DNA of 53,401 nucleotides. Origin: Eledone cirrhosa. Taxonomy: Eukaryota. Position 1 is the first letter of the stretch; every line of letters begins with the position of its first letter. Shown piece by piece: positions 2,603 through 43,272 of the stretch. The DNA is taken from the NCBI GenBank assembly GCA_964016885.1, contig CAXHJY010000977.1, positions 1 through 53,401 of the forward strand, read 5' to 3'. A program made the translations under genes and the position numbers. A model generated the notes under the pieces. That model was not told the DNA's origin. It saw only the letters and a list, made by a program, of their open reading frames with translations, and did not search any database.

Positions 2603-2745
2603 CTCTATCTATCTAAGGCGGGTAAAATTCCTGAGATCCATGGACGAGTTCTCTCCAGCGGTCTCTGTCCCTCATTATCGCTGCCATATCCTGCATCTCC
2701 AACAGACCAGTGTCTGTCCTTAGGGCATCAACATATGTTAACCTT
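2603..2745 (-). mobile_element. Second short RTE 3'-end copy, inverted relative to the first, with (TAGA)n tail
   Basis: Reverse complement of about 2194-2326 with about 4 substitutions ([43 protein letters not shown]). Confidence 0.93.
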
Positions 2746-2858
2746 ATATATGTATATATATGTATATGTATATATATGTATATGTATATATATGTATATG
2801 TATATATATACATATGTATATATATGTATATGTATATATATATATATGTATATATATG

Positions 2859-2927
<69 letters not shown>

Positions 2928-2929
2928 GA

Positions 2930-3017
<88 letters not shown>

Positions 3018-3225
3018 GTATATATATATATGTATATATATATATTGTTATACTTTGGGAGGGTCATGTTGCCAATAAGAAACACACGCACCAGTTGCTT
3101 TCACTTCAATTTATTATATATTTATAAATTTATAAATTTACAAATCTACAAACTTATAAATAAATAAACAAATAGAAAAATATAAATAGAAAAATAGAAA
3201 AATGAACACAAACACACACAGACAC

Positions 3226-3283
3226 CCGGATGTGGCGCATGCGCAAACTGAGCACACAACACACACACAGAAACAAAATGGCG
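3226..3283 (+). promoter_or_regulatory. Cluster of ETS-like, NRF1 and YY1 promoter motifs
   Basis: CCGGATGT (3226), GCGCATGCGC (3235), CAAAATGGCG (3274) within 60 bp, just upstream of the hammerhead. Confidence 0.45.
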
Positions 3284-3329
3284 TAGGATAGAAGAAAGGA
3301 AAGGCACAGAAACGAAGAAAGGAATCCCC

Positions 3330-3374
3330 AGTCACTGAAGAGGTCACAGAGTGTGTGACGAAAGGACTATGACT
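3330..3374 (+). ncRNA. Minimal type I hammerhead ribozyme
   Basis: AGTCA-CTGAAGA-G-GTCACA gagtg TGTGAC-GAAA-G GA CTA/TGACT; stem I AGTCA/TGACT; one extra nt between A9 and stem II. Confidence 0.8.
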
Positions 3375-3622
3375 ATATATATAAACAACTATCTGGTTGT
3401 GGAACCAACCAACCAACCAACCGGAAATTTATAAGTTTGTAGATTTGTAAATTTATAAATTTATAAATATATAATAAATTGAAGTGAAAGCAACTGGTGC
3501 GTGTGTTTCTTATTGGCAACATGACCCTCCCAAATATAACAATATCGGTTTCAACACACGATTTCAGATAAAGAATCTTGCTAAACAAATTCAGAAACGA
3601 AATATATATATATATATGTATG

Positions 3623-3655
<33 letters not shown>

Positions 3656-3738
3656 GTATATATATGTATGTATATATATGTATATATATGTATGTATATA
3701 TATGTATATGTATATATATATGTATATATATATATATG

Positions 3739-3826
<88 letters not shown>

Positions 3827-3918
3827 ACGAAGGAAATGTGGTAAGGAACCAGGTGGACCATAACGCACCAAAGTACTCAATACTTGAGGTAGTAGAGTGG
3901 GTAATAGGAACCAGTAAG

Positions 3919-4012
3919 ACCCCGACAGCTGAGCTCAAGCCGTTTCGACGGCTAATTCTGGACTAAATGAAAATTTATCCTGGTATTTAAATAGCCGATC
4001 TTCTCAAGGGGT
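3919..4012 (-). ncRNA. Type I hammerhead ribozyme (U3-A8 core variant), inverted copy
   Basis: Reverse complement of 5067-5160. Confidence 0.75.
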
Positions 4013-5066
4013 AATTCCATATATGGTCAAAGTGATTGTCAAAAATCAGTAGTAATTCTGTGGTTGCAAATTAGTAGGGGAGATGGTGGCTAAACCTGCC
4101 AGTAGGAGAAAGAGGGGAGGGGGTGGAGTAGACCCAATCAAGCGTTGGTAGTGCCAGCTACAGCTGGGCATGAGGTCAAAGAAGATACATGATAGATTTG
4201 GCGGACTCCGCCCTTTATAGCAGTTGGCTTAGACCCCGGATACTTGCCCCCTTTTTCCGACCGCTCCCACTATTCTCTGTGCCCTCTATATTTCTTAGTG
4301 GCACTTATGCCTTATTTTTTCGTTTCAGTATTTCTTGCTTCGCTTTTCTTCTGGGCGTGGTTGATTCTGAATTTATTTCTCCGTATTCTACCTTTATTTC
4401 GTACGAACTTTCATGTAGCTTGTTTTAGATCTTTTAGTGTTAGCATTAGTATATATTTTTCTCGGTACTCTGAATTATTATCTCGTACAAGTTCACTTTG
4501 CTGCACTGGGTCGTTGCTGGCCCGGGATGGAAACCTTTATTGTTTATTTCGTGGTAGTCTCTTTAGTATTTTGGCCCCTTTTGTTGACCCGTCACCGTAT
4601 CATTTACGTACTTATACCTCTTAAAAGGGTCCTTGCCTAATCCGTCCCACCTAGTTCTTTTACTTATTTCGTTATTTCCTTATTTATTTATTTCTTTACT
4701 TCTTTCTTTCTTTCTTTATTTATTTTATTCTGCCTAACAATAGCCTGAGACCTAGGTGGTAGTATTTAATTTACTTTACTTTTTTCTTTACACTTATTTG
4801 CTTTTCTTCACTCTCAGTATTTTTTTCTTTCCTATTTCTACCCCCATTGTTCTACCTACCGTTCCGACTTCCTCCCCCTCCCCCTCCCCTGTATCTTCTT
4901 TGACCTCATGCCCAGCTGTAGCTGGCACTACCAACGCTTGATTGGGTCTACTCCACCCCCTCCCCTCTTTCTCCTACTGGCAGGTTTAGCCACCATCTCC
5001 CCTACTAATTTGCAACCACAGAATTACTACTGATTTTTGACAATCACTTTGACCATATATGGAATT

Positions 5067-5160
5067 ACCCCTTGAGAAGATCGGCTATTTAAATACCAGG
5101 ATAAATTTTCATTTAGTCCAGAATTAGCCGTCGAAACGGCTTGAGCTCAGCTGTCGGGGT
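5067..5160 (+). ncRNA. Type I hammerhead ribozyme (U3-A8 core variant, long loop II)
   Basis: ACCCC-TTGAGAA-GATCGGCTA...TAGCCGTC-GAAA-CGGCTTGAGCTCAGCTGTC/GGGGT; stem I ACCCC/GGGGT; near-palindromic stem III. Confidence 0.75.
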
Positions 5161-5172
5161 CTTACTGGTTCC

Positions 5173-6094
<922 letters not shown>

Positions 6095-6149
6095 GAAAGG
6101 ATGAATGTAAAATGAAAGTGCTTTTGTTATTGTTAAAAAAGGAATTTAT

Positions 6150-6189
6150 TAGGTATTGACATATGTTTCTGTAACAGACCGAATACCTA
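6150..6189 (-). ncRNA. Core-degenerate hammerhead-like motif in 3' pLTR
   Basis: TAGGTATT-cggtctgttaca-GAAA-C ATAT GTC/AATACCTA followed by AATAAA; stems I and III intact, CUGANGA box absent. Confidence 0.4.
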
Positions 6190-6731
6190 TGTATCGCTGC
6201 TTGCGTAATCATATAATGTTAGCAAGTATTCGATAGCAAATGTATAATCAGTTGTCACTACTTCAGAGATTTTGGATAAATTGGATAAAATCAGAAAAAT
6301 TGAAGTATTTATATTAGTAAAAGAGGAAGGAACAGAGGGGATAGTATATGACAGATGGTAAATTAATTTACTGCTAAACAAGTATATAATGGGTTTCTAA
6401 TGAGAATACCATGAGTAAATCTAAATAAGAATTTTGGGAGTGCCAATTTTAATCTCTACTTGACCAACTGGACAGTGGACAGGGCTGGTCATTTGGTGCA
6501 GTAGTATTAATTATAAAGTGTCAATTGGGGAAGGGGGAGATTTCGATTGCTACTAAATAACATCAATGCTAGTAGCCAGCTGGTATATGCATTAGGGAAT
6601 TGAATCAAGAAATCAGAAATCTCATTTTATCTATAGCAGTTTGTATTAAAAGGTAAATAAATGATAGAATTAAGACTAATAAAGAATGTTAATATCTATT
6701 TTGACAATCAAACTGGGATAGAGACAGGCGT

Positions 6732-7129
6732 TCAATCCTGGTAGTATTTATAATATGAAAATGTAGATTTTAAGCGATGGTTACAGTATAACGATCGCTC
6801 TATTCTGTTATTTAATAAAATGTTTTTGGATTTCATAATACAAAATAATTCTACATTACATAATTTACAAAATTCCTGTCCATGGGAATATATGGGGGGG
6901 GGGGGGGGGGGGCAGCCGCTATTATATCCCATTTTAGGTGAAATTGTTGGTTATTTTCACGCAGCTGCCAAGCCTTGTCTGCGAGTGTTGTTACATAATG
7001 CTGGTTTTCATGTTTTATCGAGTAACGATGTCTATAAAGGCGTGATTTGAAGGAGGTGGCTGTAGATCCCACGTAGTACCACTTCTGTCTATCCGATTCG
7101 ATAGTAATTTTGCGTTGTTGTATTGCCAT
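6732..7129 (-). pseudogene. PLE GIY-YIG endonuclease remnant
   Basis: YYVGSTATSFKSRLYRH...LKWDII, then a frameshift at the G run near 6894-6912 into FCKLCNVE...LLNNRIE...CNHR; the Cys-rich linker and first strand seen in relatives are missing and it is out of frame with the RT. Confidence 0.85.
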
Positions 7130-8987
7130 GGATGGGTTGATGAGGTTGCTTATGTAGGACAGGATGTTGTTTGTTGTTTTGTGATGTTATAGCTAATGTT
7201 TTACGTGTATTGTTATGTGTTGGAAGGCGTTTATACAACCGTTTTGCGTTAAGCTTTTTTATATGTTGTTCAATATTAGGGGCGGTTGAATATGAAAGTC
7301 GAATAGTGTTAGGGTTTAAGATTTTATTATATTTATGTGATGTTGGAAAGTGTTTTTTAACTAATCGAAAGAATTTTGAGGGTAGATTGGTTTTAATAGA
7401 GTTGTTATCGACCGGGTTGTACCAAATATACTCCTTACATCGCCTTCTGTTTGGTGGTGTGCGACTATTATTGTGTCTATTGCGGTAGTGTATGTATGGT
7501 GGTGATTCTGTGCTATTTCTACTCCTATGTGATTTATTTTGGGTGTTTTGGTGATCTTTGACTATATACTCTATATTATCTAGGTGACCGGCTTTCCTAA
7601 GTGCATCATCATAATACTCGGCATGTTCTTTGAAGGTTTGTTGGTTGGACGACAGGCGGGAGATCCTAAGAGAAACATTTCTAGGGATGGATTTAATTAT
7701 AGAGAGTGGATGGTTAGAACTCGTATTTACATATTTAAGGTTCTCATTTAGTTTATGGAACGGTTTAATCGTATCTGTATTGAGATTGAAAGTAACATCA
7801 AGGAAATTGACCTCTTTGAGGTTATATTCAAATGTAATATCTAATCCTAGTTCCTTAAAAAGCTTTCTGATATTTTTACGCATCCTTTCTAAATTCTGGT
7901 TATTCATATGCTTAACTAATAGGAGCGCATCGTCACGGTAGATTCCACCGTGGAGATCCTTGAATTTTCCTTGTAATCTGTGGGTGATATAAATTCCCAC
8001 AAGATCTGTTACTTCCGCCGAATCATTAGAACCCATAGTGATATCAAAATTAGAGGGTCTATCTTTGCAAACCCAGTAGCTATCATCGAATTTAAGTATA
8101 GTTTTGCTCGCTTCAATAATAATTTTAATTTCAGCATCCGTAAGGTCAGAATTATCCTTAGCGAACGAAAAAGCTTCATGTAGAGTATCAAGTGAAATTG
8201 AGGAATAATATTCATCAATATCAAACTGAATAAATTTTGATTTTTTCTTATCAGTAATGTTATTAAACCATCTTATTGCTTCATGAGTGTTACCCCATAG
8301 TTTAATCTCTATTTTAACCTTAACTTGGGGGATAATTCTGTCTAGTATATATTTGCTAATTTTGCCTATATCAGATTTAGAGGGGCATATAAGTCTAATA
8401 TTAGGGTTAGTATCGAAGTTTACCTTGTGGTCCTTCAGGTTGAAGGATGGTATAGCTGGTGTTAAGGGTTGCGTTCTATCGTCAATACAAAGTTTTTTAA
8501 CAATATCACATGCCGAGTTGTTGATGTTTTTAAGTGTAGCTTCATTAGTTTTCCTGTATTTTTTATGCAATTCCTTACGGATGAAGTTATTGTAAGTGTC
8601 CACATCCATGGTATATACGTTTGATGTTTTGTCTGCTCTAACAATAATTCCATTGGCGTTTTTTAGATTATTGAGCAGTGCCGTGGTGTCATTCTGTAGT
8701 TTATTGTTCTTCCGTTTTGTAAATTTGATCTCCATGATCATATCCATTAGGTCTTGTTCAAATGCATCCAAAAGTGGGTTTGAGGGTGGGTTCTTGTAAG
8801 ATTTAAATCCAAATTTATCCTTGTTAAGATCCGATGTTTGGTTTATACGGCTTTTGTCAAAATGGAATGTTTTCCATCTGATTCGTCGAATAAAATCATT
8901 GGTCCTTCGTATCATACCTAGAATATATTCCCTTTTTGCCTGAATAGGTATGTTTTTTAACGACATATCCAATTGGTGCCTTTCCAT
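7089..8987 (-). CDS. Penelope-type reverse transcriptase (632 aa, endonuclease disconnected)
   Basis: IVRADKTSN, NLKDHK, IRLICP, FIQFDIDEYYSSI, FDITMGSNDSAE, GIYRDDAL, VNFLDVTF, SSNHP motifs. Confidence 0.92.
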   Translation of the reverse strand: MERHQLDMSLKNIPIQAKREYILGMIRRTNDFIRRIRWKTFHFDKSRINQTSDLNKDKFGFKSYKNPPSNPLLDAFEQDLMDMIMEIKFTKRKNNKLQNDTTALLNNLKNANGIIVRADKTSNVYTMDVDTYNNFIRKELHKKYRKTNEATLKNINNSACDIVKKLCIDDRTQPLTPAIPSFNLKDHKVNFDTNPNIRLICPSKSDIGKISKYILDRIIPQVKVKIEIKLWGNTHEAIRWFNNITDKKKSKFIQFDIDEYYSSISLDTLHEAFSFAKDNSDLTDAEIKIIIEASKTILKFDDSYWVCKDRPSNFDITMGSNDSAEVTDLVGIYITHRLQGKFKDLHGGIYRDDALLLVKHMNNQNLERMRKNIRKLFKELGLDITFEYNLKEVNFLDVTFNLNTDTIKPFHKLNENLKYVNTSSNHPLSIIKSIPRNVSLRISRLSSNQQTFKEHAEYYDDALRKAGHLDNIEYIVKDHQNTQNKSHRSRNSTESPPYIHYRNRHNNSRTPPNRRRCKEYIWYNPVDNNSIKTNLPSKFFRLVKKHFPTSHKYNKILNPNTIRLSYSTAPNIEQHIKKLNAKRLYKRLPTHNNTRKTLAITSQNNKQHPVLHKQPHQPIHGNTTTQNYYRIG

Positions 8988-9194
8988 TTTAGAGGCGTAT
9001 GCTGAATTAGTTGCTCAACTGTATAGGAGATTAATAAAATTTCAGGTTATCAATAATGTAGTGATAATATATCGTTACGTTAGAGATGAACAGCGTACGT
9101 GCAGGTTTGCTCAACGAGTATAAATTATATTCCGGAGAAAATGTAGAAAGGATGAATATAAAATGAAAGTGCTTTTGTTAAAAAAGGAATTTAT

Positions 9195-9234
9195 TAGGTA
9201 TTGACATATGTTTCTGTAACAGACCGAATACCTA
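9195..9234 (-). ncRNA. Core-degenerate hammerhead-like motif in 5' pLTR
   Basis: Identical to 6150-6189. Confidence 0.4.
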
Positions 9235-9619
9235 TGTATCGCTGCTTGCGTAATCATATAATGTTAGCAAGTATTCGATAGCAAATGTATAATCAGTTGT
9301 CACTTCTTCAGAGATTTTGGATAAATTGGATAAAATCAGAAAAATTGAAGTATTTATATTAGTAAAAGAGGAAGGAACAGAGGGGATAGTATATGACAGA
9401 TGGTAAATTAATTTACTGCTAAACAAGTATATAATGGGTTTCTAATGAGAATACCATGAGTAAATCTAAATAAGAATTTTGGGAGTGCCAATTTTAATCT
9501 CTACTTGACCAACTGGACAGTGGACAGGGCTGGTCATTTGGTGCAGTAGTATTAATTATAAAGTGTCAATTGGGGAAGGGGGAGATTTCGATTGCTACTA
9601 AATATATATATATATGTAT

Positions 9620-11091
9620 ACAATATTAAATAAATGGAAAACTATATTTATAAAACCATATTTATTTCATTATATATATTTCGGGGATATCATATTAACA
9701 ATATGCTATGCCTTCATCAGACAAAATACAATATAAACAGTTTTATAGATAAATAGATTCGACATACCGTAATAACACCGACTTCATTTGAAGAGGTTTA
9801 CGCTGGCAGTGAAAAAATTTTATACAGAGAGAAAGAAAGAGAGAAAAAAGAAAGAAAGACAAAACGAAGAAAAGGAAGAAAAAGAAGAAAAAGAAAAAGA
9901 AGAAATGGATGGAACAAAATAGAGAGATGGAAAGATAGATAAAGCGAAGAACTTCATGTAAAGAAACAGAAAGAGACATATATATATAGAGAGAGAGGAA
10001 ATAGAGATAGATACATATATATATAGAAAATTAGGTAGTGGGAGGTCATTTTGAGTAAATGTATCAATGATACATTTATTTATTTATTTATTTATTTAGC
10101 TCAGGTATTAATGTAAGGGAGATATATATAGAGAAAAAAATATAGAGAGAGGAAAAAATAGCGAGAGAAAAAAATTTAAAAATAGCCAGACATATTCGAG
10201 GCGCAAAAACCCTATGTTTTAATGTATTACTATTTATAAAACTTACACTATATTGTAAATATCAGTATTCCTGAATGAGACAAGTATCCATAATGTGTGA
10301 AAATTAATTATCTTATGTTTAGTTTTAAAAAATTCATATGTTTATGTGACAGCTACAAACATCCATGCGAATCCAACTGATTCACGGAAAACATTCTCAA
10401 TGTGGTATAAAAATTTGAGCGTATTATTATTCCTGTCATTACTCTACAAGATTATCTATCAAGCAGAAATAGAGAGCAGATTTCAATATACTAATAAAAA
10501 TACATATTATAAACAAAACTAAAAATAAAAAGATAATAATAATAATAATAAGTAAAAATATAGAATAGAAAACTAAAAAAATATTACGAAAGAATATTAC
10601 ATAATAAAAATATTACATATTAAAAATACTACGTATTAAAAAATATTACGTATTTGCTGATGCTCCAAAATTTTTTGAATTAACCTTACACTAGATAAAC
10701 TTCTATATTAAATATAAGAACATATGTAGACCTAATTGGACATCATAATCTTTTTGAAATGATCTTTGCTAGATGTGATTTGATAGATAATTTTTGGCTT
10801 TGCCTTGTAATGAACTTGGCAATATATTGTCAATTAACTTTGAAGGGTTGTTCTTTGTGGTTTATTTTTATTTTTATTTATTTTTATTTTTATTTTTATT
10901 TTTATTTTTATTTTTTATTATTGTAGTATTCTATAATATTTTTTATTTTTTATTTTTTATTTTATTTTTAATATCTTTAATATGTAAATTTTTAATACGT
11001 AATATTTTTTAATACGTAGTATTTTTAATATGTAATATTTTTATTATGTAATATTCTTTCGTAATATTTTTTTAGTTTTCTATTCTATATT
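9620..11091. mobile_element. PLE 3' UTR remnant (family D), inverted arrangement, right arm cut off at the LINE
   Basis: 10557-10654 is the reverse complement of 10994-11091; 10657-10870 resembles 52681-52900 downstream of a GIY-YIG ORF; 9620-9770 matches 51612-51770. Confidence 0.75.
9664..9727 (-). ncRNA. Minimal type I hammerhead ribozyme (family D)
   Basis: ATTTTGT-CTGATGA-aggcatagcatattgttaatatgatatcccc-GAAA-T ATAT ATA/ATGAAAT, overlapping AATAAA. Confidence 0.75.
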
Positions 11092-13880
11092 TGAATGGGA
11101 CGGATAGCACGGGGCCCAAGCCTTGGGTGTATCTTGAAGGCGATGCCAACATCATTTGGGCAGTGATGATGGAACATTTTCCACATCATGCAGATAATAT
11201 AACGCTCACGGCGACGTTGGAGTGAGTAAAGTTTCAGGTTTTCTAGTCGACCCCAGTAGTCAAGGTCTGACATGCCATCTATCTTTTTCGTGATTGCCCT
11301 TTGAGGAGCCTCAAGTTTCATGATACTTTGTTTCGTGTGGGGAGACCACAGTGGACAACAGTATTCAAGGTGTGGTCGGGCAAAAGTAGAGAAGAGAAGG
11401 ATAATGGTGTGGGAATCTCTCGACTGGAAGGTTCTGAGGATCCAGGAACACATTCTGCGGGCCATGTCAACTTTGCTGCTTATATGCGTGGCCCAGCTTA
11501 TGTTGCTGTCCACGGTTACTCCCAAGTCTCTGATGTTGTTAGATGCCACGAGAGTTTCCCCGGAGGGAAGGGAGTACGGGAGTTTCAGAGCATCCTCTTT
11601 TCCAAAGTGGATCAGTTCGAATTTGTCTTCGTTCAGTAACATGTTGTTCTTTTCCGCCCATTGGGTAACAGCCAGTAGGTCTGACTGAAGGCTTATCCGG
11701 TCATCCACGCCATTGATGACCTTTTGGAGCTTGGAATCATCAGCGAAAATTTTAATGTTGCTGTGTTTGATGATGTCAGTGATGTCATTAATATAGATGA
11801 TGAAGAGAAGTGGGCCCAACACAGTGCCTTGTGGGACCCCACTACAGACTTTGGCTGGGCTGGATTTGACTCCTTCAACTACAACATGTTGGGTTCTATT
11901 TGACAGGAAGCTCTTGATCCACTGCAGCAGCTTTCCAGTGACACCAATATTGGACAGCTTTCTCAGTAGAATGTTATGATCAACCCTGTCAAAGGCCTTG
12001 CTGAAATCAAGGTAGATAACATCAGTGTTGGAACCCTCTCCCAAGGCTCTCAAAATGTCATCAAAGTGATGCAGTAGCTGCGTCAGGCAATCCCTTCCAT
12101 TACGGAATCCATGCTGGTTGGAGTTCAGCATATTGTTACTCTCAAGGAAGTGGGTCATTCGCGATCTCACCACTCTCTCAAATACCTTAATGATATGAGA
12201 GGTGAGTGAGATTGGACGGTAATTCACGGCAAGGGATTTGTTTCCCTTTTTGAAAACTGGGACAACAGACTGGGATAGAAGGTTTTCTGGCACATATCCA
12301 GCATCCAGTGAGTTCCGCCACAGATTGGCAAGAGGAGATGCAAGTTGGTGTTGACACGCCTTCAAGACACAAGCAGGGAACCTATCGGGACCTACTGCTG
12401 AATTATGCTTGATTTCCTTTATTGCCGCTAAGACATCAGGGGCGCCAAACGTTATGTCCGATAAGGTGTAATGGGGAGTAACATCGCCGATACAGCCCAG
12501 ATCGGCCATATCAGGATTGCTGAAAACAGAGCAGTATTGTTTCTGCAGTATCTCACCCATGGTTTTAGCATTGTCTTGAAGAGTGCCATTTTCATCAATT
12601 AGAGGGCCAACAGTAGAGCCAGTGATTTTGTGTTTTTTTGCAAATGAAAAGAACACTTTGGGATTGAGTTTGATCTTCTCAATGGCCCAGGCCTCTTCAG
12701 CTCTTCTCTGATTGTTGATGAGGGACATTATGTTGTTTTGGAGGTTATGTTTTTTAATCTCTAGTGATGAAATGGCAGTCAAGTTGATGTGTTGCTGCTG
12801 ACAGTATTTCAGCTTGTTGATCTTTTTGTTCGTTCTCTTAATTTTTCTGATGAGCGTTTTTCTATTTCTAGGGATTCTGCTCTTAGATTTGTTTATAGTT
12901 CTTAATGGAGTGTGTTTTGCACATATGTTTTTAACAGTGTCCACAAATGTCTGCCAGGACTTTTTGATGTTAGTGGGTGTATGAGTGTGCGTGAAGGACC
13001 AGTCGACATGTGCAAGATCATGACTGATCGCTTCCCAGTTTGCATTGTGGAAATCCATAGCGTCAAACGGATGGACAGGAGAGATGACATTGGGTTTGTA
13101 TATTGGACGGTGGAATCTCAGATCACAGAGAACCATCTCATGATCAGAGAGTAGAGTTTTCTCCACTGCAATATTGTGGATATTGTCAGTGTGATTGCTG
13201 AAAATTAAGTCTAGGACGTTTTTGTGGCACCTCGTTGGTTCGAGCACCAGTTGGGATAGGAAGAAATCATCCATGAAGTCAAGAAGCGATTCCACTGCTT
13301 CCCTGTCAGAGGTTGAGGCAGAAGAACCTGGTGGCAGGCTGTTTGTGGACCAGTCAACTCCGGGGAGGTTGAAGTCCCCCATCATTAAGATGTTGTCAGG
13401 GTGACACTCTTGGATGAAACACTTTATGCTGTTGAGGCATTCTTTGAAGCATGGTACAGGCGTTTGGGGTGGCCTATAGAGCCCAACTACTATTAGGTTG
13501 TTGGTTTGACTGAATACAGTGACTGCTTCACAGTATCCATTAGTGAATATGTTCATAGCCTCTGTTGAGAAAGAATTATGGACATAAATGGCAGTCCCGC
13601 CCTTTCTTCTGCCAGCGCGATCAGCACGGATGGCTTTGAAATTTTTCACTTTCACCTCGGCTTCCAAGTGGAGGTTACTGAGATGGGTTTCAGTGAGGAC
13701 GAAGAAAGGGATGTGGTTTGGATGGACATCAATCCAGTCCTCCAGGAATTTGATCTTCCATTTTTGAGTATTGGTGGAAGGGCTGATGCTTTGGGCGTTA
13801 AGCAAAAATGTAGAGGCGAGAGTGGATGGTTTTAATTGTTTTGGTGTGTTGTTAATTTGTTTGTTTGTTAATGGCAGCAA
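11085..13880 (-). CDS. LINE ORF2: APE endonuclease plus reverse transcriptase (C-terminus truncated)
   Basis: [38 protein letters not shown]; [62 protein letters not shown]. Confidence 0.95.
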
Positions 13881-14108
13881 TGGGAGTTTGTGCAGTGGGG
13901 TGATAGTGGAGGGTGGTGCTGGGTGATAGCTCGAATGTTTTTTTCCAGTTCTTTTGCCAGATTAATTATGGCTAAAAAAGAGGAAGAAGTTTCCTGTTTA
14001 GAAGACTGTTGGTGACTGTGGTAGTGGTTATTTTTATGTAGGTTATGGTTTTTGTTTTTGCTTTTATTTTTAATTTTATTTTCATTTGTCCGACGGGTGC
14101 CCGGGAGA
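11092..14108 (-). mobile_element. CR1-group LINE: probable ORF1 C-terminus plus ORF2, truncated at both ends
   Basis: Open frame 14110-13868 (LPGTRRTNE...SSSFL...HCCH*) precedes ORF2; the 3' end is lost relative to the copy at 31041-33622. Confidence 0.9.
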
Positions 14109-19319: not shown

Positions 19320-19360
19320 TATGAAATATAAGAATCAAAGAACTGTTCAAAACATTATTG

Positions 19361-19407
19361 TGCTTACAGCTGTTTCCTCCAAACCGAGGTTTGGATTCTT
19401 CGGAGCA
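19361..19407 (-). ncRNA. Minimal type I hammerhead ribozyme (U4C variant)
   Basis: Mirror of 23343-23389. Confidence 0.75.
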
Positions 19408-20850
19408 ATTTATTAATGCATGGACAGTTATATGACCTCCTTTTCAGCCGAGAGACATACCAACACATATTCAAACATTGATACATATTCAAACATTGTG
19501 GGTCAACATTCATTACAAAATTTAGAGTGGCAGTACACACTTCGAGATTACATTTATATTAATAGGTACAATCAAAAATCAAAGATATAGGTTAAAGTAC
19601 AACATGAAGATAAGTGGTTATATAGTGCAAATGTTATATGTGTGGCACGCATGTGCGTCTTGTTTATATAGTGTGGCAGAGAGATATGTGTGGTAGAGGC
19701 ACTTAGGTAGGTAAATAAGAGTGTTAGGTTGGTAGATCTGGTGGCAAAGTCTTTATATGATTGATGTAGTCTGTGTGTGGAGAAATATTATAAGTATTAA
19801 AGATAGTGCAAGCATTAAAAGTGTTATAAGTATTGGAGATGCACAACGCAGGGATGTCAAGTAATTCATGTACTTCGGCATTTTCATGGTCAAGGGAGTG
19901 TATATTTCGATTATATGCCTTTCACATAATCCACGACAATCCAGTTAGAGATCGTAGTCTGGTGTTCTTTAGTTCGATACAGGAGGTTGTTACGTTTCGA
20001 GAGACGCCATTGAATACCGGAAGTGTGTGTGTGGCTAAGGGGAGTTAATGCATGCGGGGAGGTAACTCTGGGGTTTCTATATCTAGCCATTAAAATGTGT
20101 CCCAATATGGACCCTAAATTCTATGGTGAGGTGCACCTTCCAAGAGAGACTTTTAAAGCATAAAGTGCACTAACTATAGAGTAGTTTAACTAAATTATGC
20201 TGAAGGTGATCATATTATTATTAAGGTGGATTAACCCATCTTAAGGTGCTACAAATGGAAATTATAGATGATGAGCGAGGATTCTAAATTAATGATCTCT
20301 GTGGTTGTAGTCTGCTCATATGACCAGGCGCGGTGATTGCAGGATTGCTTCAGGACCCAATGATCTCTGGTAAGATCTGGGTCATCGCTTGCTACATTGG
20401 ATGTCGAAAGATAATCATCCCCAGGCAGGCCAAAGGTCAATCCGCAGTCCTCGCGACCCCTCTCTGACCGTCAGATCATCCATATACGTACAACCCGCAC
20501 GGCAGTTGCATTGCATTCACTCACTGCGCTCAGCAGCCCGGTCCTACTGGTCAACAGCGCTACTCGATTAAATCATTTTACATCTGTCTAAGGAAGGTGT
20601 TTCCTCTGCCCAACACCATCCAACCGATCAATTCATGCTCAAATTACCCTTAGAGCGGTGTAGTGCCGTCCAGGTGGGTGGATGTTGTCACACCTGCCGT
20701 AGAGGTATAAATGGGTATTTTCCCTGCGAAGGGTTCCAGAGGGATGTCGTTGTTTGTGTTATAATGGATCAGCTAGTGTTGGGTATGTAGTATAGGGTGT
20801 GTCTCTGGTGTTTGATGCTAGATGTGGTGTTAGGTTCCAGTCCGACATTG

Positions 20851-21654
20851 CTATATATAGGGCTTAAAGTTTTGGAAGGAATGTCTGAGGCGGTGTTGGC
20901 AAGTTGCAAACACCTCAGATTTTTTGTTAAGTAGGTTACGGTTGGAGAAGATAATATTGTGTGTCTCTAGTATACAGAGGTTACAGAATTTATTAGGTGG
21001 TTTGTACGAGGTCGCGCTGCCTATCACTTCCCATTTGAGTGTGTATGGTTTATTTTTAGATTTTAGATAGTGTATGTAGCTAGAAAGTGAGGTGGAGTTG
21101 GCTAGGCTGTGCTTTTTGAACGAGTGGATGTGCGAGTTATATCTAATTTTGAAGCAGTTAGAAGTGGAGCCTACATAGGTTTCTGAAGAGTTATTAGTCG
21201 TGACTGTGCATGAGTATATGACATCCTTGGTTAGGCATTTTTTATCTAAGGGGCAGGTTCTATTAGCTCTACAGTTACAATTATTCTGTGCGTTAGTCCG
21301 CTGGTTATAATGCAATGCGGAAGTCTGTGTGGTGGATATAGGATTTTGGGTGTTCAGGTTGACAACCCTGGTGTTATTACTTATACTAGTGTTATTTCTA
21401 TTGTTACTGCCGTTGCTATTGTTGCTTGCTACAGTGGTATTTAGAGGGTTTGCATCCCGTTGTGATTTTGTTTGTTGGAAGTAAGAACTAATTTTACTAT
21501 TATTGCTGCTAGCTATGTGGTATGCTAAGTTAGGCGTCGTAGAGTATGAGATTTTAATGGTGTTTTTGTTTAAGAGGTTGTGGTACTTGTGTCCTAGAGG
21601 GAAGTTTTTATCTAGTAGTGAGAAGAAAGCCCTAGGTATGTTGGTGGAGACATT
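20851..21654 (-). pseudogene. PLE linker plus GIY-YIG endonuclease, 5'-truncated
   Basis: [82 protein letters not shown]. Confidence 0.92.
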
Positions 21655-23342
21655 TAGCTACATACACTAGCTACATACACTATCTAAAATCTAAAAATAA
21701 ACCATACACACTCAAATGGGAAGTGATAGGCAGCGCGACCTCGTACAAACCACCTAATAAATTCTGTAACCTCTGTATACTAGAGACACACAATATTATC
21801 TTCTCCAACCGTAACCTACTTAACAAAAAATCTGAGGTGTTTGCAACTTGCCAACACCGCCTCAGACATTCCTTCCAAAACTTTAAGCCCTATATATAGC
21901 AATGTCGGACTGGAACCTAACACCACATCTAGCATCAAACACCAGAGACACACCCTATACTACATACCCAACACTAGCTGATCCATTATAACACAAACAA
22001 CGACATCCCTCTGGAACCCTTCGCAGGGAAAATACCCATTTATACCTCTACGGCAGGTGTAACAACATCCACCCACCTGGACGGCACTACACCGCTCTAA
22101 GGGTAATTTGAGCATGAATTGATCGGTTGGATGGTGTTGGGCAGAGGAAACACCTTCCTTAGACAGATGTAAAATGATTTAATCGAGTAGCGCTGTTGAC
22201 CAGTAGGACCGGGCTGCTGAGCGCAGTGAGTGAATGCAATGCAACTGCCGTGCGGGTTGTACGTATATGGATGATCTGACGGTCAGAGAGGGGTCGCGAG
22301 GACTGCGGATTGACCTTTGGCCTGCCTGGGGATGATTATCTTTCGACATCCAATGTAGCAAGCGATGACCCAGATCTTACCAGAGATCATTGGGTCCTGA
22401 AGCAATCCTGCAATCACCGCGCCTGGTCATATGAGCAGACTACAACCACAGAGATCATTAATTTAGAATCCTCGCTCATCATCTATAATTTCCATTTGTA
22501 GCACCTTAAGATGGGTTAATCCACCTTAATAATAATATGATCACCTTCAGCATAATTTAGTTAAACTACTCTATAGTTAGTGCACTTTATGCTTTAAAAG
22601 TCTCTCTTGGAAGGTGCACCTCACCATAGAATTTAGGGTCCATATTGGGACACATTTTAATGGCTAGATATAGAAACCCCAGAGTTACCTCCCCGCATGC
22701 ATTAACTCCCCTTAGCCACACACACACTTCCGGTATTCAATGGCGTCTCTCGAAACGTAACAACCTCCTGTATCGAACTAAAGAACACCAGACTACGATC
22801 TCTAACTGGATTGTCGTGGATTATGTGAAAGGCATATAATCGAAATATACACTCCCTTGACCATGAAAATGCCGAAGTACATGAATTACTTGACATCCCT
22901 GCGTTGTGCATCTCCAATACTTATAACACTTTTAATGCTTGCACTATCTTTAATACTTATAATATTTCTCCACACACAGACTACATCAATCATATAAAGA
23001 CTTTGCCACCAGATCTACCAACCTAACACTCTTATTTACCTACCTAAGTGCCTCTACCACACATATCTCTCTGCCACACTATATAAACAAGACGCACATG
23101 CGTGCCACACATATAACATTTGCACTATATAACCACTTATCTTCATGTTGTACTTTAACCTATATCTTTGATTTTTGATTGTACCTATTAATATAAATGT
23201 AATCTCGAAGTGTGTACTGCCACTCTAAATTTTGTAATGAATGTTGACCCACAATGTTTGAATATGTATCAATGTTTGAATATGTGTTGGTATGTCTCTC
23301 GGCTGAAAAGGAGGTCATATAACTGTCCATGCATTAATAAAT

Positions 23343-23389
23343 TGCTCCGAAGAATCCAAACCTCGGTTTGGAGGAAACAGCTGTAAGCA
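23343..23389 (+). ncRNA. Minimal type I hammerhead ribozyme (U4C variant)
   Basis: TGCT-CCGAAGA-a TCCAAAC ctcg GTTTGGA g-GAAA-C AGCT GTA/AGCA; palindromic ACAGCTGT. Confidence 0.75.
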
Positions 23390-23599
23390 CAATAATGTTT
23401 TGAACAGTTCTTTGATTCTTATATTTCATATAACTGCTCTGTAAATCATCTGATGTTTTTACATTGAGCTACTTAACTTACTGGTAATAAGGTAGTAATA
23501 CATTACTGCCTACCACTATTTAGGGTGTGTGTAAAATACTTACAACTGCTTAAGGTTTTGTGTTTACATAACCATAAATAGTATAACTAATACTATATG

Positions 23600-23965: not shown

Positions 23966-24000
23966 TAAACAAATAACGAAACGACATTAAATTTCGCTTC
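23678..24000 (-). repeat. Inverted duplicate of 18695-19017 (34 unique bp plus about 290 bp microsatellite)
   Basis: Identical translated patterns in ORFs 18708..18914+ and 23781..23987-; shared gaagcgaaatttaatgtcgtttcgttatttgttt. Confidence 0.9.
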
Positions 24001-26349
24001 CAACAGAGACAAAACCACCAAGAAGCTCCGGGACGCTATCCAACCTTAACTTCTACAAGGCTAACTGGAAAAAGATTAAGAGTGAAATCCGGAAGCAAAC
24101 ATGGAGTGAAAACATCGCCACACAAAACACTAACACACAATTTCAACAGTTCATGACAGCGATACACACCATATGCAAAAAGTGTGTCCCGGAGAAAGAG
24201 GCAAACAGACACAAAAATCTTATTCCCAGAGATAGGAAAATCCTTATGAGACGTAGAACTAAACTCTCAAACCAGTTGAATAGTCAACAAAACCAAAACA
24301 AGAAGGAATCCTATTTGAAACGTGCACTACTTGACACCGAGATTGCACTCAAACTTTCACATGAGAATGAGAGGGCAAAGAAAGAGAACAGGGCCATAGA
24401 AAACATTAAAACAAACCCTAAGGCCTTCTTTAAATTTGCAAAAGAAACTGCCTCAGTACACTGCAAGATTGGACCACTCTTCCACACGGACGGTTCATTA
24501 ACCGAAAACCCCCAAGAGATATGTGAAATACTGAACGAACAGTACAAAAGTGTCTTCACATGTCCACTGAGGCACATGCAAATAACGAAGCCAGAGGAGT
24601 TCTTTGATGCCACAACACTACATCAAGAAATGGCAACCATCAACCACATAGACATAATGGAAGAGGATGTAGTGTACGCCATTGATGAAATTAGAACAGA
24701 CTCGGCTGCTGGACCTGATGGATTCCCAGCAGTTCTCCTAAAAATATGTAAGCGGGCCTTAGCAACTCCACTGAAGATGCTCTTCAGAAGCTCCTTGGCT
24801 AGCGGTGTACTACCCAGGGAGCTGAAAGAAGGCACAATATGCCCTATCCATAAAGGAGGTAGTAGAGCGGAGGCCAAGAACTATAGGCCAGTCTCCCTGA
24901 CGTCGCATATCAGTAAGGTCATGGAGCGAGTCGTCAGAAAGAAACTAATCGCTTTCCTAGAAGAAAATGACCGCCTGACTAGCACGCAACATGGCTTCCG
25001 CCCAGGAAGAAGCTGCCTTAAACAGCTGCTACATCACTACGACTGGGTACTGAGACAGCTACTAGACAGCTCACATGTAGACGTGATATATCTTGACTTT
25101 GCGAAGGCCTTTGACAAGATCGACCACGGAATGATATGTCACAAACTACACGGACTCGGCATAACTGGAAAAGTAGGTGAGTGGCTGCATGGCTTCCTAA
25201 GGGACAGAAGCCAGGCAGTCGCAGCAAATGGGGCCCTCTCGAGGGAAACACCGATAACAAGTGGGGTGCCTCAGGGGACAGTCCTGGGACCACTACTGTT
25301 TTTGGTGGCTCTCTCGGACATGCCCTCTGTGGTGCATGCAACAACATCCCTCACTATCTATGCTGATGACACTAAGGTAGCACAGGCAATCAAAAACCCG
25401 GCTGACGCTGCCCTCTTACAGCAGGATCTGGATGCCATATACAGATGGGCGGAAGAAAACAACATGCAGTTTAATGCTGGCAAATTCCAAGCCCTACAAT
25501 ACAAACCTGCAAACACAAACACAAATATAGCGGAACACAGCTACACAGGACCAGGAGGGACCGATATCCCCGTGTCAAAATCGATACGAGACCTGGGCAT
25601 AGACATGAGCGATGATGCATCTTTTTCTTCACACATCATGAAGGTGGCGACAGCATGTAGACGATTCGCTGGCTGGATCTTGAGGACTTTCCTTACAAGA
25701 GATCGAGACACCATGTTGACACTGTGGAGGACTTTTGTCCTAAGCCGCCTGGACTACTGCTCCCAGCTGTGGTCACCCCATAGTGTCAAACTAACCACAG
25801 AGCTTGAGGCAATCCAGCGAAGCTACACCAAGAGGATTGCCAAGATGAGGGAGACAAGCTACTGGGAGAGGCTGAAGGAACTGAACCTCTACTCCTTGGA
25901 GCGAAGACGGGAGAGATACGCAGTGATCTACATGTGGAAAATCCTGGAGGGACTAGCACCAAACTTTGGCATTGGGAGCTGGACCAACCGTCGAACAGGA
26001 CGTCACTGTGTGGTGCCAAAGGTCCCGTCTTCCACATCTAGAATAAGGAGCAGGTATTGCAATAGCCTGGGATTCAAGGGCCCTCAACTCTTCAACAGGC
26101 TGCCGAGGCATCTGCGAGACTTGCATGCCGTGGAGGTGGATGTCTTTAAGAAACATCTCGACACCTTGTTATCCAAGATCCCGGATGAGCCCACAGCAAG
26201 ACACGAGGGAAACCTAAGGGCAGCAGCAACAAACTCCCTCCTACACCAGTGGCCAACCTATACAGGCTGGAGATAAAATGTGTAGCAACAAGGGCGGTGC
26301 CCCAGCATGGCCTCAGCCGGATGGCTGAAACAGATAAGAGTAAAAGAGA
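24001..26349 (+). mobile_element. CR1-group LINE (second family), 5'-truncated, intact 3' end
   Basis: Frame open from 24003 (..[12 protein letters not shown]..) to 26276; short 3' UTR with hairpin TCAGCC ggat GGCTGA, then TA tract. Confidence 0.93.
24153..26276 (+). CDS. LINE reverse transcriptase (ORF2 lacking APE domain)
   Basis: [79 protein letters not shown]. Confidence 0.93.
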   Translation: MTAIHTICKKCVPEKEANRHKNLIPRDRKILMRRRTKLSNQLNSQQNQNKKESYLKRALLDTEIALKLSHENERAKKENRAIENIKTNPKAFFKFAKETASVHCKIGPLFHTDGSLTENPQEICEILNEQYKSVFTCPLRHMQITKPEEFFDATTLHQEMATINHIDIMEEDVVYAIDEIRTDSAAGPDGFPAVLLKICKRALATPLKMLFRSSLASGVLPRELKEGTICPIHKGGSRAEAKNYRPVSLTSHISKVMERVVRKKLIAFLEENDRLTSTQHGFRPGRSCLKQLLHHYDWVLRQLLDSSHVDVIYLDFAKAFDKIDHGMICHKLHGLGITGKVGEWLHGFLRDRSQAVAANGALSRETPITSGVPQGTVLGPLLFLVALSDMPSVVHATTSLTIYADDTKVAQAIKNPADAALLQQDLDAIYRWAEENNMQFNAGKFQALQYKPANTNTNIAEHSYTGPGGTDIPVSKSIRDLGIDMSDDASFSSHIMKVATACRRFAGWILRTFLTRDRDTMLTLWRTFVLSRLDYCSQLWSPHSVKLTTELEAIQRSYTKRIAKMRETSYWERLKELNLYSLERRRERYAVIYMWKILEGLAPNFGIGSWTNRRTGRHCVVPKVPSSTSRIRSRYCNSLGFKGPQLFNRLPRHLRDLHAVEVDVFKKHLDTLLSKIPDEPTARHEGNLRAAATNSLLHQWPTYTGWR

Positions 26350-26370
26350 ATATATATATATATACATATA

Positions 26371-26571
26371 ACCCCTTAGCCTTTGTCAAGGCAGAATATA
26401 TATATATATATATACATATAGATATATATATATATATATATACATATGACCCCTTAGCCTTTGTCAAGGCAGAATTCTAGGAGAAGGAAAACTCTGATAT
26501 AACACCTGCATATACATATATATACATATATATACATATATATATACATATATATATATACATATATACAC

Positions 26572-26848: not shown

Positions 26849-26909
26849 CCCCTTAGCCTTTGTCAAGGCAGAATTCTAGGAGAAGGAAAACTCTGATATA
26901 ACACCTGCA
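26371..26909 (+). repeat. Three reiterated copies of one element end separated by TA tracts
   Basis: accccttagcctttgtcaaggcagaat at 26371 (27 bp), 26449 (62 bp) and 26848 (62 bp, continuing into unique sequence). Confidence 0.9.
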
Positions 26910-27032
26910 ACCCTGATGGTATCCAATGATGTTGACTTGTTCTTCTTTTTGGTAAATATCATCTTGGTTAAGAGAGTGGGACTGGCTTTGTGCAGTGCCT
27001 TTGCTCATTATAAAAGCTTCACGGCACAGGCA

Positions 27033-27464
27033 TATTCAGTTGTGGTTTTAAGTTTTAAAATTTTTACCGGTTGCGCATTTCTAAATGCTTTTCAAAAATA
27101 ATTTTGAGATAGAGTGTCCGTGCTGTTTGCTCTGATCTGATTAGTTTTGGGAATTCTACCTGTTTTTATGTTAAAAAAGTGGCTCCAATTTGCAAAAATT
27201 CTTGTGGTCAAAACAATTTTGATTGGTCGGTAGAGGTCATGTGAATGTAAGAAATTGATTTTGCGCCAAGACTCTTTTTATGTTAAAAAAGTGGCTCCAG
27301 CAAAAATTCTTGTGGTCAAAACAATTTTGATTGGTCGGTAGAGGTCATGTGAATAAAAAATTGGTTTTGCGCCAAGATTGATATATATCTTAATAGCCAT
27401 TTGACAGACATCGCTGCTAACCATTATCACAACATCGAACGCCTTACTACTACTACTACTACTA

Positions 27465-27521
<57 letters not shown>

Positions 27522-27896
27522 CACATATTTGTTGTGAAAGAGTCATTTCTCAATCTTGGCGCAAAACCAATTGTTTATTCACATGACCTCTACCGACCAA
27601 TCAAAATTGTTTTGACCACAAGAATTTTTGCTGGAGCCACTTTTTTAACATAAAAACAGTCTTGGCGCAAAATCAATTTTTTACATTCACATGACCTCTA
27701 CCGACCAATCAAAATTGTTTTGACCACAAGAATTTTTGCAAATTGGAGCCACTTTTTTAACATAAAAACAGGTAGAATTCCCAAAACTAATCAGATCAAA
27801 GAAAACAGCACGGACACTATCTCAAAATTATTTTTGAAAAGCATTTAGAAATGCGCAACCGGTAAAAACTTAAAAACATAAAACCACAACTGAATA
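27033..27896. repeat. Unclassified interspersed repeat in inverted arrangement with internal tandem unit of about 105 bp
   Basis: 27033-27381 is the reverse complement of 27550-27896 with scattered differences; (CTA)n(CA)n spacer; further copy at 45413-45890. Confidence 0.85.
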
Positions 27897-27932
27897 CTAA
27901 CCCATACAATCACTAATACTCTTTTATTCCTA

Positions 27933-29816
<1,884 letters not shown>

Positions 29817-38722: not shown

Positions 38723-40384
<1,662 letters not shown>

Positions 40385-40796
40385 ATTGTTATACTTGGGG
40401 AGGGTCATATTTGTGTAATATTGCCAGAATTAATAACAGAACACACTCACTGTTTGGTTGGTTTTCGCTTCTCGCTGTCTTTTATATCTGCGATCTAACA
40501 CCACTGACGATGTTGCAGATGTGCAACGAAAGATTTATGTAAATTATGTAAACTATATATATGTGTTTGTGTCTATATTGTATCTGTATTATTTTTGACC
40601 GTCGGTCAGTCAATGGCAACATTGAGGACCGAGTAAGTAAGATCGCAGATATAAAAGACATCGAGAAGCGAAAACCAACCAAACAGTGAGTGTGTTCTGT
40701 TATTAATTCTGGCAATATTACACAAATATGACCCTCCCCAAGTATAACAATATTTGTTTCGACACACGATTTCATATAAAAAACCTCGCTAAACTG
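40385..40796 (+). mobile_element. Non-coding hammerhead-bearing mini-element (family A relative)
   Basis: Arms 40385-40497 and 40640-40752 inverted; extension of about 44 nt (gtttcgacacacgatttca..gctaaac) similar to 3547-3587. Confidence 0.75.
40501..40540 (+). ncRNA. Minimal type I hammerhead motif (weak stem I)
   Basis: CA-CTGACGA-T-GTTGCA gatg TGCAAC-GAAA-G AT TTA/TG; same extra nt after A9 as 3330-3374. Confidence 0.65.
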
Positions 40797-40917: not shown

Positions 40918-43035
40918 TCTGTGTCACATCACAAACTTCCCTTACCAACACTTGCACAGACAAAAACACAAGCCAAACCTCAACAATAAAGAATGGGAAG
41001 AATTAAATAGATTAAAAACCGACAGAACCATTACAATTAAAGAGGCTGATAAAGGGAGTACAGTAGTCCTAATGGATACAGAATTCTATATCAACTTAGC
41101 GCTCTCCACTTTGGAAAACGAAACATACTACGAAAAGGCTGAACACTACAATCAACAGAAAATTATGAGAAACCTAAAAACTCTAATCAACCAATACAAA
41201 GAAGGACTCACTAACAAGGAATTCAGCTTCATCACAGACTTCACAAGAAAATCCAGCCTCTTCTACGGTATCCCTAAAGTACATAAAAGCGAATCAATAA
41301 GTAAGGCATGCAAGGAAGCCACAGACATAGTCATCAATGTCCCCCCACCCAATGATCTCAAATTAAGACCTATAATAGCAGGCCCCGCTTGCGAAACCCA
41401 CCGCCTTAGCAACTTCATTGATACCCTTCTCAAACCCTTCCTCAAACACATCAAAAGCTATATAAGGGACGACCTAGATATGCTCAATCACCTCCCTAAT
41501 ATGCCACTTTCTGAACAAACCCTACTAGTGACGTTCGATGTAGTCAACCTATACTCCAACATCCCCCACAACCTAGGAATAGAAGCTATCCAATTCTGGC
41601 TGGATAATTTCCACAATGAACTCCCACAACGCATCAAAAAAGAATTCGTGATAGAGGGACTCAAATTTATCTTGGAGAACAATTACTTCGTTTTCAATAA
41701 CAAACCCTACAGGCAGAAATCTGGGACCGCTATGGGAACGAAAACAGCCCCCACTTATGCCAACCTAGTCATGGGATACCTGGAAATCACCATCTACACT
41801 AAAGTCCTAAACAAATTTGGAAACACCCTCCACTTACACATTGAAAGGAACTGGAAGCGATATCTAGATGACTGCTTCATCCTTTGGCACGAAAACATCG
41901 AAAAACTTAAAGAATTTCACACCCTTATAAATGGGCTCAACACGAATATTAATTTCACGATGGAATACAGCCATCAACAACTTCCCCGACATCCTCATTA
42001 AGATCCATAACAAAAAAATAGAAACAGACATATACTACAAGCCCACAGACTCCAAGCAATATCTCCCCTTCAACTCTTGCCACCCTAGACACGTTAAAAT
42101 TAATATTCCCTACAACTTAGCCAAGAGAATCTGTACTATAGTCTCCAATAAAAACATCTGCTACTTACGGCTACAAGAACTAAAGGACACACTCATAGGC
42201 AGGGACTACCCTGCATCACTAATTGACAATGGAATCCAACGTGCCCTAAAACTCAGTACCCAGGACCTTAGACACCCTAAAGTAAATCAACCGAAACTAA
42301 AAGCTCTTCCATACATCTCCACACACAACCCTCTCAACAATGAGGCCTTTGACACCATCCTCCAGAACATCCCTGTGTTGAAAAAGGACCATAGAATGAA
42401 ACAAATTCTACGAACACACGATATCATAAAGAGCAAAAGACAATCCAAGTCAATGAAACACATCCTAACACATGCCAAAGTACTGCCAACCACAATAACA
42501 AAACCCACAGTAAAAATATGCGATAGACCCAACTGTGGCATTTGCATCAACCTAATAGAGGGTTCGGAATTCTATTTCAAAGATGGACAACGTTTTATAG
42601 TAAAACACAATTTCACATGTGCATCGGAAAATCTAATATATGTATTAACTTGCTCAGGTTGTCGAGAACAATACATAGGCCAGACCAAAAACAGCCTCCG
42701 CCAACGCATGACGGTCCATAGATCCCAAATTAAAATACGGGAATACAGGAAAATACCACTGAGTGAACACATTGATACCTGTGCCGCCCAAAATGATCCC
42801 AACTTCAGAATCTTTCCCCTCTACAAATTTAAAGATAATGCCACCCACACCCAGCGCATCAGCAAGGAATCTTACTTCATTAACAAATACGGACCCCGTC
42901 TAAACACTTCTCCCTAAGACGAACCCACAACACACACACTTTAACATACATACCTACATCAGCACACATCTCCACCCACATATAAACACAATGACATACG
43001 TAAACACACATGCTCTATCGTGCAACACAAAAAAA
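40918..43035 (+). mobile_element. PLE (Neptune/Naiad-type) RT plus GIY-YIG, one frameshift, 3' UTR cut short by a TA tract
   Basis: IKEADKGSTVV, FYGIPKVHK, LRPIIAGP, VTFDVVNLYSNIP, QKSGTAMGT, WKRYLDD; small deletion at LP(FL)DI near 41987; ICDRPNCGIC, FTCASENLIYVLTCSGC, YIGQT..LRQRMTVH; stop 42917. Confidence 0.93.
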
Positions 43036-43142
<107 letters not shown>

Positions 43143-43272
43143 GTGAGGTTTTTTTTACAAAATGAAAAATAACCGAGGTGTCCTACACGAGTGGAAGTAT
43201 AAAGAAAAAGGGATGAAATCGAAAATGCAACTGAAGTCTTATTTTTTTAAAAATATATATATTTATTTGATT

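Follow-up and report, generated by a model that had tools for sequence, protein, structure and literature searches.

Probable truncated pLTR relics of a PLE family in (TA)n-rich DNA of Eledone cirrhosa

Insertions of Penelope-like elements (PLEs) are frequently truncated at the 5' end and carry an inverted truncated copy beside that end. They have a tail at one end only and prefer (TA)n as a target, according to the available text of PMC8557442. In the minimal hammerheads (min-HHRs) of metazoan PLEs a base lies between positions 9 and 10.1, G10.1 pairs with C11.1, helix II is long, helix I is short, and the 15.2-16.2 region is palindromic. Most of these hammerheads occur singly or as opposite-strand pairs, which are described as 'probably related to truncated PLEs', and a single min-HHR motif showed no cleavage in vitro (PMC4209133, in its available part). 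In Pen2a_Av of Adineta vaga the pLTR encodes 12 amino acids of the ORF, and the pLTR together with the tail encodes 22 (PMC3846280, available text). In the Poseidon element PAc, reverse transcription begins at two sites within the start of the ORF, and the interval between them forms the tail; both target strands are cut and extended. Initiation proceeds in vitro without homology to the target, and cleavage by the PAc ribozyme is protein-dependent and dispensable for insertion (PMC11167929, as far as its available sections go).

The window analysed here is a stretch of 53,401 nucleotides from Eledone cirrhosa. It is animal-like repetitive DNA, in which about 15 kb of (TA)n-type microsatellite lies between retroelement islands. 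By Pfam, three islands contain RT, one contains GIY-YIG and two contain AP-endonuclease domains, and a translated comparison of the window with itself reveals PLE ORF pieces in seven islands. The motifs of the islands fit the Neptune (CX2-5CxxC linker, DKG) and Hydra (RWK, DKT, CxCX5C) definitions given in the available part of PMC8557442. Two hammerhead-bearing units in this window, copy 1 and copy 2, are probably 5'-truncated pLTR relics of an autonomous PLE whose full-length copy lies outside the window. The feature is real, and its kind, PLE pLTR relics, is already known. The family itself appears to be previously unlisted, judged by the supplement of PMC8557442.

Layout of the copies and their neighbours

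Table 1. Features of copy 1, copy 2 and the third family fragment, in window coordinates.
Feature	Position	Strand	Remarks
(TA)n microsatellite, left part	2745..3045		likely target
Inverted tail-less partial pLTR arm, copy 1	3046..3161	-	copy of 3427-3541
A-rich stretch, copy 1	3162..3225	+	likely remnant of 3' non-coding region; putative role
Predicted Pol II promoter	3226..3283	+	copy 1 only; predicted from motifs
Minimal type I hammerhead, copy 1	3330..3374	+	fits the PLE min-HHR description in the available part of PMC4209133
Non-coding pLTR segment, copy 1	3375..3520	+	likely 5' leader; barely alignable to copy 2
ATG-led frame, copy 1	3521..3601	+	likely PLE ORF start; 1-nt gap near codon 5 relative to own arm
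(TA)n microsatellite, right part	3602..3826		likely target
Third family fragment	39454..39574	+	mirror image of copy 2 arm across an 812-bp (TA)n run
Inverted tail-less arm, copy 2	40387..40499	-	copy of 40637-40749, 98.2%
Minimal hammerhead, copy 2	40500..40542	+	core at 40504; unpaired T after A9; 6-bp helix II
Intact ATG-led frame, copy 2	40728..40794	+	22 codons; through the 45-bp tail 40750-40794 to its end

Copy 1 occupies 3046-3601 (556 bp), both of its ends being uncertain by at most 4 nt against the flanking (TA)n. In a self-comparison of the window its arm matches the inverted segment at 99.1% identity over 116 bp. Codons 1-7 of the ATG-led frame form the end of the arm, which enters the (TA)n at an ATAT that is common to the body. 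The 5' truncation/inversion junction lies at 3161/3162, and the body (3162-3541) is followed by a 60-bp tail (3542-3601) that has no left-hand partner. An earlier sequence-only reading of this DNA had described a 560-bp unit with promoter-type motifs, a hammerhead and an inverted terminal duplication, and this description was borne out, with the extent now set as above. That reading also took the inverted duplication and the extension beyond it to be special, whereas both are published hallmarks of PLEs (PMC4209133, PMC8557442 and PMC3846280, in their available parts).

The diverged relative that had been placed at 40385-40796 is real, and it keeps the end motif, the extension and the hammerhead variant. 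It is not a full relative, however, as it is cut just upstream of the ribozyme core and a motif scan finds none of the promoter motifs in it. Copy 2, delimited here as 40387-40794, has the layout of copy 1; its arm is 113 bp long and its extension 45 bp, and the last 70 bp of the two copies are 85.7% identical. The arms are nearly equal in length (116 and 113 bp) but lie at non-homologous positions, and the repeats of both copies have only about 25 bp in common. While the two copies named earlier stand, the third family fragment had been missed. This fragment has the same breakpoint as the arm of copy 2, and the two have in common two diagnostic bases that are lacking in the body. The end motif occurs five times in the window and in none of 100 shuffles.

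Both copies consist of an inverted, 5'-truncated copy beside a pLTR with a one-sided tail, the minimal type I hammerhead lies within the pLTR in sense orientation to the tail, and all ends of copy 1, copy 2 and the third fragment abut (TA)n; these are the features by which PLE insertions and their target are recognised. Six other elements examined in the window share the arm-body-tail layout, and PLE endonuclease ORF ends are kept in two, 19324-23593 (Hydra type) and 43137-44931 (Neptune type). The 380-bp element at 51010-51389, which has no ORF, is a copy of the ORF-bearing 43137-44931 family, about 98% identical, and serves as an internal control that truncation produces such relics here. 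The distance from the stop codon to the hammerhead downstream of it is about 0.9, 1.0 and 2.4 kb in three neighbours with an ORF. Copy 1 keeps 173 nt upstream of its hammerhead and copy 2 keeps 4 nt; a missing endonuclease end is therefore expected. None of the seven PLE ORF-bearing islands in the window shares the ends of the copies, so no parent ORF was found among them. The second option of the sequence-only reading, pLTRs of an unseen autonomous PLE, gives the best fit to the arm-body-tail layout in (TA)n, the min-HHR and the ATG-led end.

A near-complete Hydra-clade PLE lies at 6095-9604 on the minus strand. It has direct pLTRs at 9146-9604 and 6095-6559 (98%) and a 641-codon frame at 7089-9014 with RWK and DKT, and its endonuclease end is in another frame. 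A scan finds no hammerhead in its pLTR, and the 5' pLTR continues into the leader at a TA boundary. The inverted arm of the Hydra-type element 19324-23593 is 1760 bp long and matches the body at 99.9% identity. The tail of this element, at 167 bp, is well above the usual 30-40 bp, and the insertion is very recent. A 5'-truncated Neptune ORF with RT and GIY-YIG and one frameshift near 41931-42001 is present at 40918-43034 on the plus strand, ending 117 bp past its stop with no pLTR and no hammerhead. This ORF was considered as that of copy 2 and rejected: 123 bp of (TA)n lies between them, the ORF is 5'-truncated and there are no common ends, and it is treated as independent.

AP-endonuclease/RT LINEs are found at 11085-13961, 31041-33622 and 23968-26395. 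Over 2270 bp, 11085-13961 and 31041-33622 are 98.8% identical, and the former has an open 958-codon frame. Mirror-image duplicates occur across or around (TA)n at 2195-2326/2613-2744, 39454-39574/40387-40499, 18695-18727/23968-24000, 27933-27988/29761-29816 and 14870-14972/17081-17184. Among the sequences duplicated in this way are the 3' end of an RTE-like LINE and 33 bp of flank outside the PLEs. The TA run, being self-complementary, possibly primed fold-back copying that gave rise to these duplicates.

Hammerhead and promoter-like motifs

The ribozymes of copies 1 and 2 are, as judged by their motifs, of the ordinary minimal PLE hammerhead type. In copy 1, helix I (3330-3334/3370-3374) has 5 bp, the core spans 3335-3341 with an unpaired G at 3342 after A9, helix II (3343-3348/3354-3359) has 6 bp, helix III (3363-3368) is a single pair, and the cut is predicted at 3369/3370. 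A hammerhead motif of this type appeared in 1 of 20,000 shuffles. The body of copy 2 starts 4 nt before the ribozyme core, and because of this 5' truncation its helix I is cut to two of the five pairs. The extra nucleotide after A9 that the sequence-only reading had pointed out is present, as G in copy 1 and T in copy 2, but there is nothing special about it, as it belongs to the standard PLE minimal hammerhead in the available description of PMC4209133. The covarying stem II fared similarly: two compensatory double changes are seen among the six pairs of helix II, but they are weak evidence when taken alone, as 125 of 500 shuffles reach this count and two sequences only are compared.

The helix III segments are self-complementary, with four of six pairs and a central GA/AG in copy 1 and six of six pairs, including wobbles, in copy 2. 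The predicted minimum-energy monomer fold of the copy 1 ribozyme is not the active fold, and the folding energies of the two ribozymes are ordinary (z -0.8 and -0.4). A relaxed scan of the window finds 13 hammerhead-like motifs, two of which belong to copies 1 and 2. Rfam gave no hammerhead family match for the copy 1 unit or for the motif alone, and for the whole window no hammerhead family was among the best 150 of 380 matches listed.

Other hammerheads in the window differ in detail. Those at 47432-47942, 49576, 51711 and 9720 have a helix III of ATATATAT and a G-U pair closing helix II, and the hammerhead at 47629/47844 has 15 core and helix II bases in common with the ribozyme of the copy 1 family. 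The Neptune-type pLTRs at 43137-44931, 51010-51389 and 17038 contain a U3-A8 variant of the hammerhead core with a palindromic ACCGGT helix III. An ORF-less arm-plus-tail element at 3827-5172 (minus strand) has a U3-A8 hammerhead at about 5066-5162 on its inverted arm, with a long helix II, a true 6-bp helix III and a predicted minimum-energy fold that matches. This hammerhead might be able to cleave as a monomer.

The promoter-like cluster of copy 1 comprises an ETS-like CCGGATGT (3226-3233), an NRF1-like palindrome GCGCATGCGC (3235-3244) and a YY1-like AAAATGGCG (3275-3283). The factor names and consensus patterns applied to 3226-3283 are those that we take to be appropriate, and are not database matches. 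All three motifs are present, as had been claimed, and they occur together in none of 20,000 dinucleotide shuffles of the copy 1 body, while two of the three occur in 2 of 20,000. In the Neptune pLTR an E2F-like TTTCGCGC, by what is presumably the E2F consensus, is found at 43449 and 44684, upstream of its hammerhead.

The ATG-led end of the copies

The motif common to the ends of the copies opens with ATG and has A at position -3 in both. Copy 1 has the same frame as copy 2, with a 1-nt gap in its body that is absent from its arm, and because of this gap codons 1-5 of copy 1 were taken from the arm and codons 6-22 from the body. Over the terminal 66 nt, 8 of 22 codons differ between copies 1 and 2, five by synonymous and three by replacement changes, and six of the eight changes are at third positions. 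The pN/pS of 0.15 (P 0.010, binomial; 0.019, substitution-type-matched null) comes from two copies and from a frame that was picked once it had been seen. In both copies a reverse frame is open as well, with two synonymous and six replacement changes; another gives four and three, but contains a stop. The ATG-led frame is intact in four of the five copies of the end motif. Between the ribozyme and the ATG, 16 of 300 shuffles score as high as the alignment of copy 1 with copy 2. No conserved RNA structure is predicted for the terminal segment of copies 1 and 2, the folding of which has a z of -2.1 in copy 2 and +0.9 in copy 1.

The conserved end is probably coding, and would be the start of an RT-endonuclease ORF. 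The sequence-only reading had reported no associated ORF; this remains correct in that no full ORF is attached, but the end motif with its extension is an ATG-led open frame, and the seven microsatellite-bounded islands carry PLE ORF pieces of other families. The tails of the six other elements have no comparable ATG-led frame, only one of 11 codons being found, in 3827-5172. In the near-complete Hydra element the pLTR boundary falls in the 5' leader.

Searches with the frame peptide gave no match at E<=10, none in viral or genome contigs, no Pfam family and no usable protein-atlas match, and the peptide is absent from the supplement of PMC8557442; because only 22-27 residues are informative these blanks carry little weight. 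The sole peptide match (P0002) was rejected, being a tandem-repeat protein with a score summed over six stretches. Motif scans found the end motif in no metagenome contig and no genome contig, and the tail motif in no viral contig. Two metagenome matches to the tail motif are attributed to chance, one (L001) lying inside a bacterial-looking coding region and the other (L002) being a degenerate repeat that is otherwise dissimilar.

Six sequencing runs with six other organism labels, from five studies, contain 0.21-0.49 of the sampled words of copy 1. In this count one study (the 4 best rows), possibly the source, was left out, and 10 rows below 0.2 were unused. The matches under other organism labels suggest a multi-species repeat and do not separate the readings considered below. 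No RNA run was among the matches listed, which says nothing on expression.

Competing readings, mechanism and relation to known systems

Copy 1 is compact, with a strong cluster of promoter motifs and an intact ribozyme motif, and the window holds no full ORF with the ends of the copies. These properties would suit the first option of the sequence-only reading, a non-autonomous family, in the form of a dedicated mini-PLE. Such a short unit would derive from a pLTR, have a promoter of its own, and be transcribed and then copied in trans by a PLE protein binding the retained ORF-start sequence. In Adineta, pLTR sequences are reported to be sufficient in cis for mobilisation (PMC3846280), and it is known that non-autonomous Chlamys elements exist (PMC8557442). 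A non-autonomous derivative would inherit identical ends, the arm lengths are similar though their positions are not homologous, and the sequencing-run matches may also be counted on this side. The 5' ends of copies 1 and 2 differ, however, and because the end is constrained at the level of codons while the non-coding middle is barely alignable, the divergence appears to have taken place between protein-coding parents. The same window also contains relics without an ORF from a family that has one. We consider a mini-PLE unlikely on balance. Its fullest form is more doubtful still: a self-transcribing, non-tandem, multi-species mini-PLE with a housekeeping promoter of ETS/NRF1/YY1 type, a dimer-type hammerhead, an ORF start serving only as an RT-binding signal, (TA)n homing and an AUAU-primed cDNA end. 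Chlamys such as MRC1 are, like the copies, short and pLTR-forming, are similar to the 3' end of autonomous PLEs and have microsatellites as their targets; they differ in having many copies of a fixed unit, often head-to-tail, against two copies with different 5' ends here, and the available part of PMC8557442 describes them as without canonical hammerheads.

The headline of the sequence-only reading, a compact non-coding retrozyme-like element, found no support. The copies share with animal non-LTR retrozymes the type I hammerhead, a size of a few hundred bases that is within the range of retrozyme units, and the link to PLE pLTRs (PMC7229834; bioRxiv 10.64898/2026.07.22.740005, available parts), and retrozymes are reported in the latter to be pLTR-derived and to leave monomers. 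A retrozyme monomer would be a 150-450 bp tandem unit that is transcribed, self-cleaved and circularised, but no direct repeat of the unit is found in the window, and each copy has one ribozyme. This ribozyme is minimal, with no extended helix I (5 pairs, and 2 in copy 2) and a helix III of one pair, and its predicted minimum-energy fold differs from the active one, while the available text of PMC7229834 gives retrozymes canonical type I motifs. The inverted arm and tail are a PLE integration product, the 5' ends of the copies differ and the end segment evolves like coding sequence. A retrozyme monomer is very improbable. Inverted repeats that are long (113-116 bp) and 98-99% identical, flanked by TA, could also be read as the termini of a MITE or foldback DNA transposon inserted at TA, a TA target-site duplication being indistinguishable inside (TA)n. 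The right repeat is not terminal, however, as 60 and 45 bp that are conserved between the copies lie beyond it, and it has already been seen how little of the repeats the two copies share. The ribozyme and the ATG-led frame are strand-oriented, and Pfam shows no transposase family in the 23 window ORFs scanned. A DNA transposon is the least credible of these readings, hardly to be entertained, and the earlier warning against filing the unit as a MITE was right.

For the preferred reading, truncated pLTR relics of an autonomous PLE, a mechanism can be proposed from the anatomy of the copies and the published in vitro PLE system. The RT/GIY-YIG protein would cut a (TA)n run, and both cut ends would prime reverse transcription at internal sites in the ORF start of the RNA, about 67-81 nt and about 21-25 nt downstream of the ATG, the nearer site being an AUAU able to pair with the target. 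The tail would be the 45-60 nt stretch between both priming sites. Synthesis of both cDNAs would stop far short of the endonuclease coding end, giving products of 440 and 116 nt for copy 1 and of 295 and 113 nt for copy 2, which would be joined head to head. In the parent element, transcription of the downstream ORF would depend on the promoter, and cleavage by the ribozyme would require a dimer or the help of protein; lone copies are predicted to be inert or nearly so.

The arm end shares 2-6 nt with (TA)n in seven of the eight elements examined (five families), in a comparison that was not blind, as the ends were set by a microsatellite mask; a match by chance is expected in 18% of cases for 2 nt, 6.7% for 3 nt and 2.5% for 4 nt. 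The eighth element, 26850-27988, has an arm without a TA flank. This match at the tail-less end suggests that, in PLEs that target TA, homology assists priming at one of the two RT start sites. Such priming of the arm differs from the homology-free initiation of PAc in vitro (PMC11167929), and the available text of PMC3846280 favours self-priming for head-to-head inversions, as against the joining proposed here.

If the copies are relics, as is most likely, their value is for annotation only. It is easy to misfile relics of this kind as MITEs or unknown repeats, and the ATG-led tail points to the place to look for the parent ORF. The TA match at the tail-less end and the ETS/NRF1/YY1-like cluster in a pLTR may be useful to PLE specialists; neither priming by TA match nor such a pLTR cluster was found among the titles listed by searches of the open-access literature. 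The self-transcribing, multi-species mini-PLE, if true, would act as the SINE-like partner of a PLE that targets TA and would provide a minimal natural substrate for insertion by PLEs.

The ribozymes of the copies resemble the metazoan PLE min-HHRs of Cercyon, Xena, Neptune and Poseidon (PMC4209133, available part) in the unpaired base between A9 and G10.1, the G10.1-C11.1 pair, the long helix II, the 5-bp helix I and the single-pair helix III, with a self-complementary loop suited to dimers. Helix II has 6 bp in the motif-predicted ribozymes here, compared with 7-8 in the min-HHRs. Solo or truncated pLTRs of C-terminal-endonuclease PLEs (Penelope/Poseidon, Neptune, Hydra) have the same inverted, tail-less partial pLTR beside a direct, tailed pLTR, with a hammerhead and promoter motifs in the pLTR and an AT-rich target. 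The pLTR and tail cover the first ORF codons in Pen2a_Av (22 amino acids; PMC3846280) and would do so here for the putative ORF start (22-27 codons). The copies differ from these PLEs in having no RT or endonuclease sequence attached, and in a tail of 45-60 bp instead of 30-40. The ATG is about 150 nt downstream of the cut site, whereas it is within the ribozyme in PAc of Anolis (PMC11167929, available sections). The promoter motifs are ETS/NRF1/YY1-like where these PLEs have TATA/Inr, and the arm end has an ATAT match to the target, unlike systems of the Pen2a_Av and PAc type.
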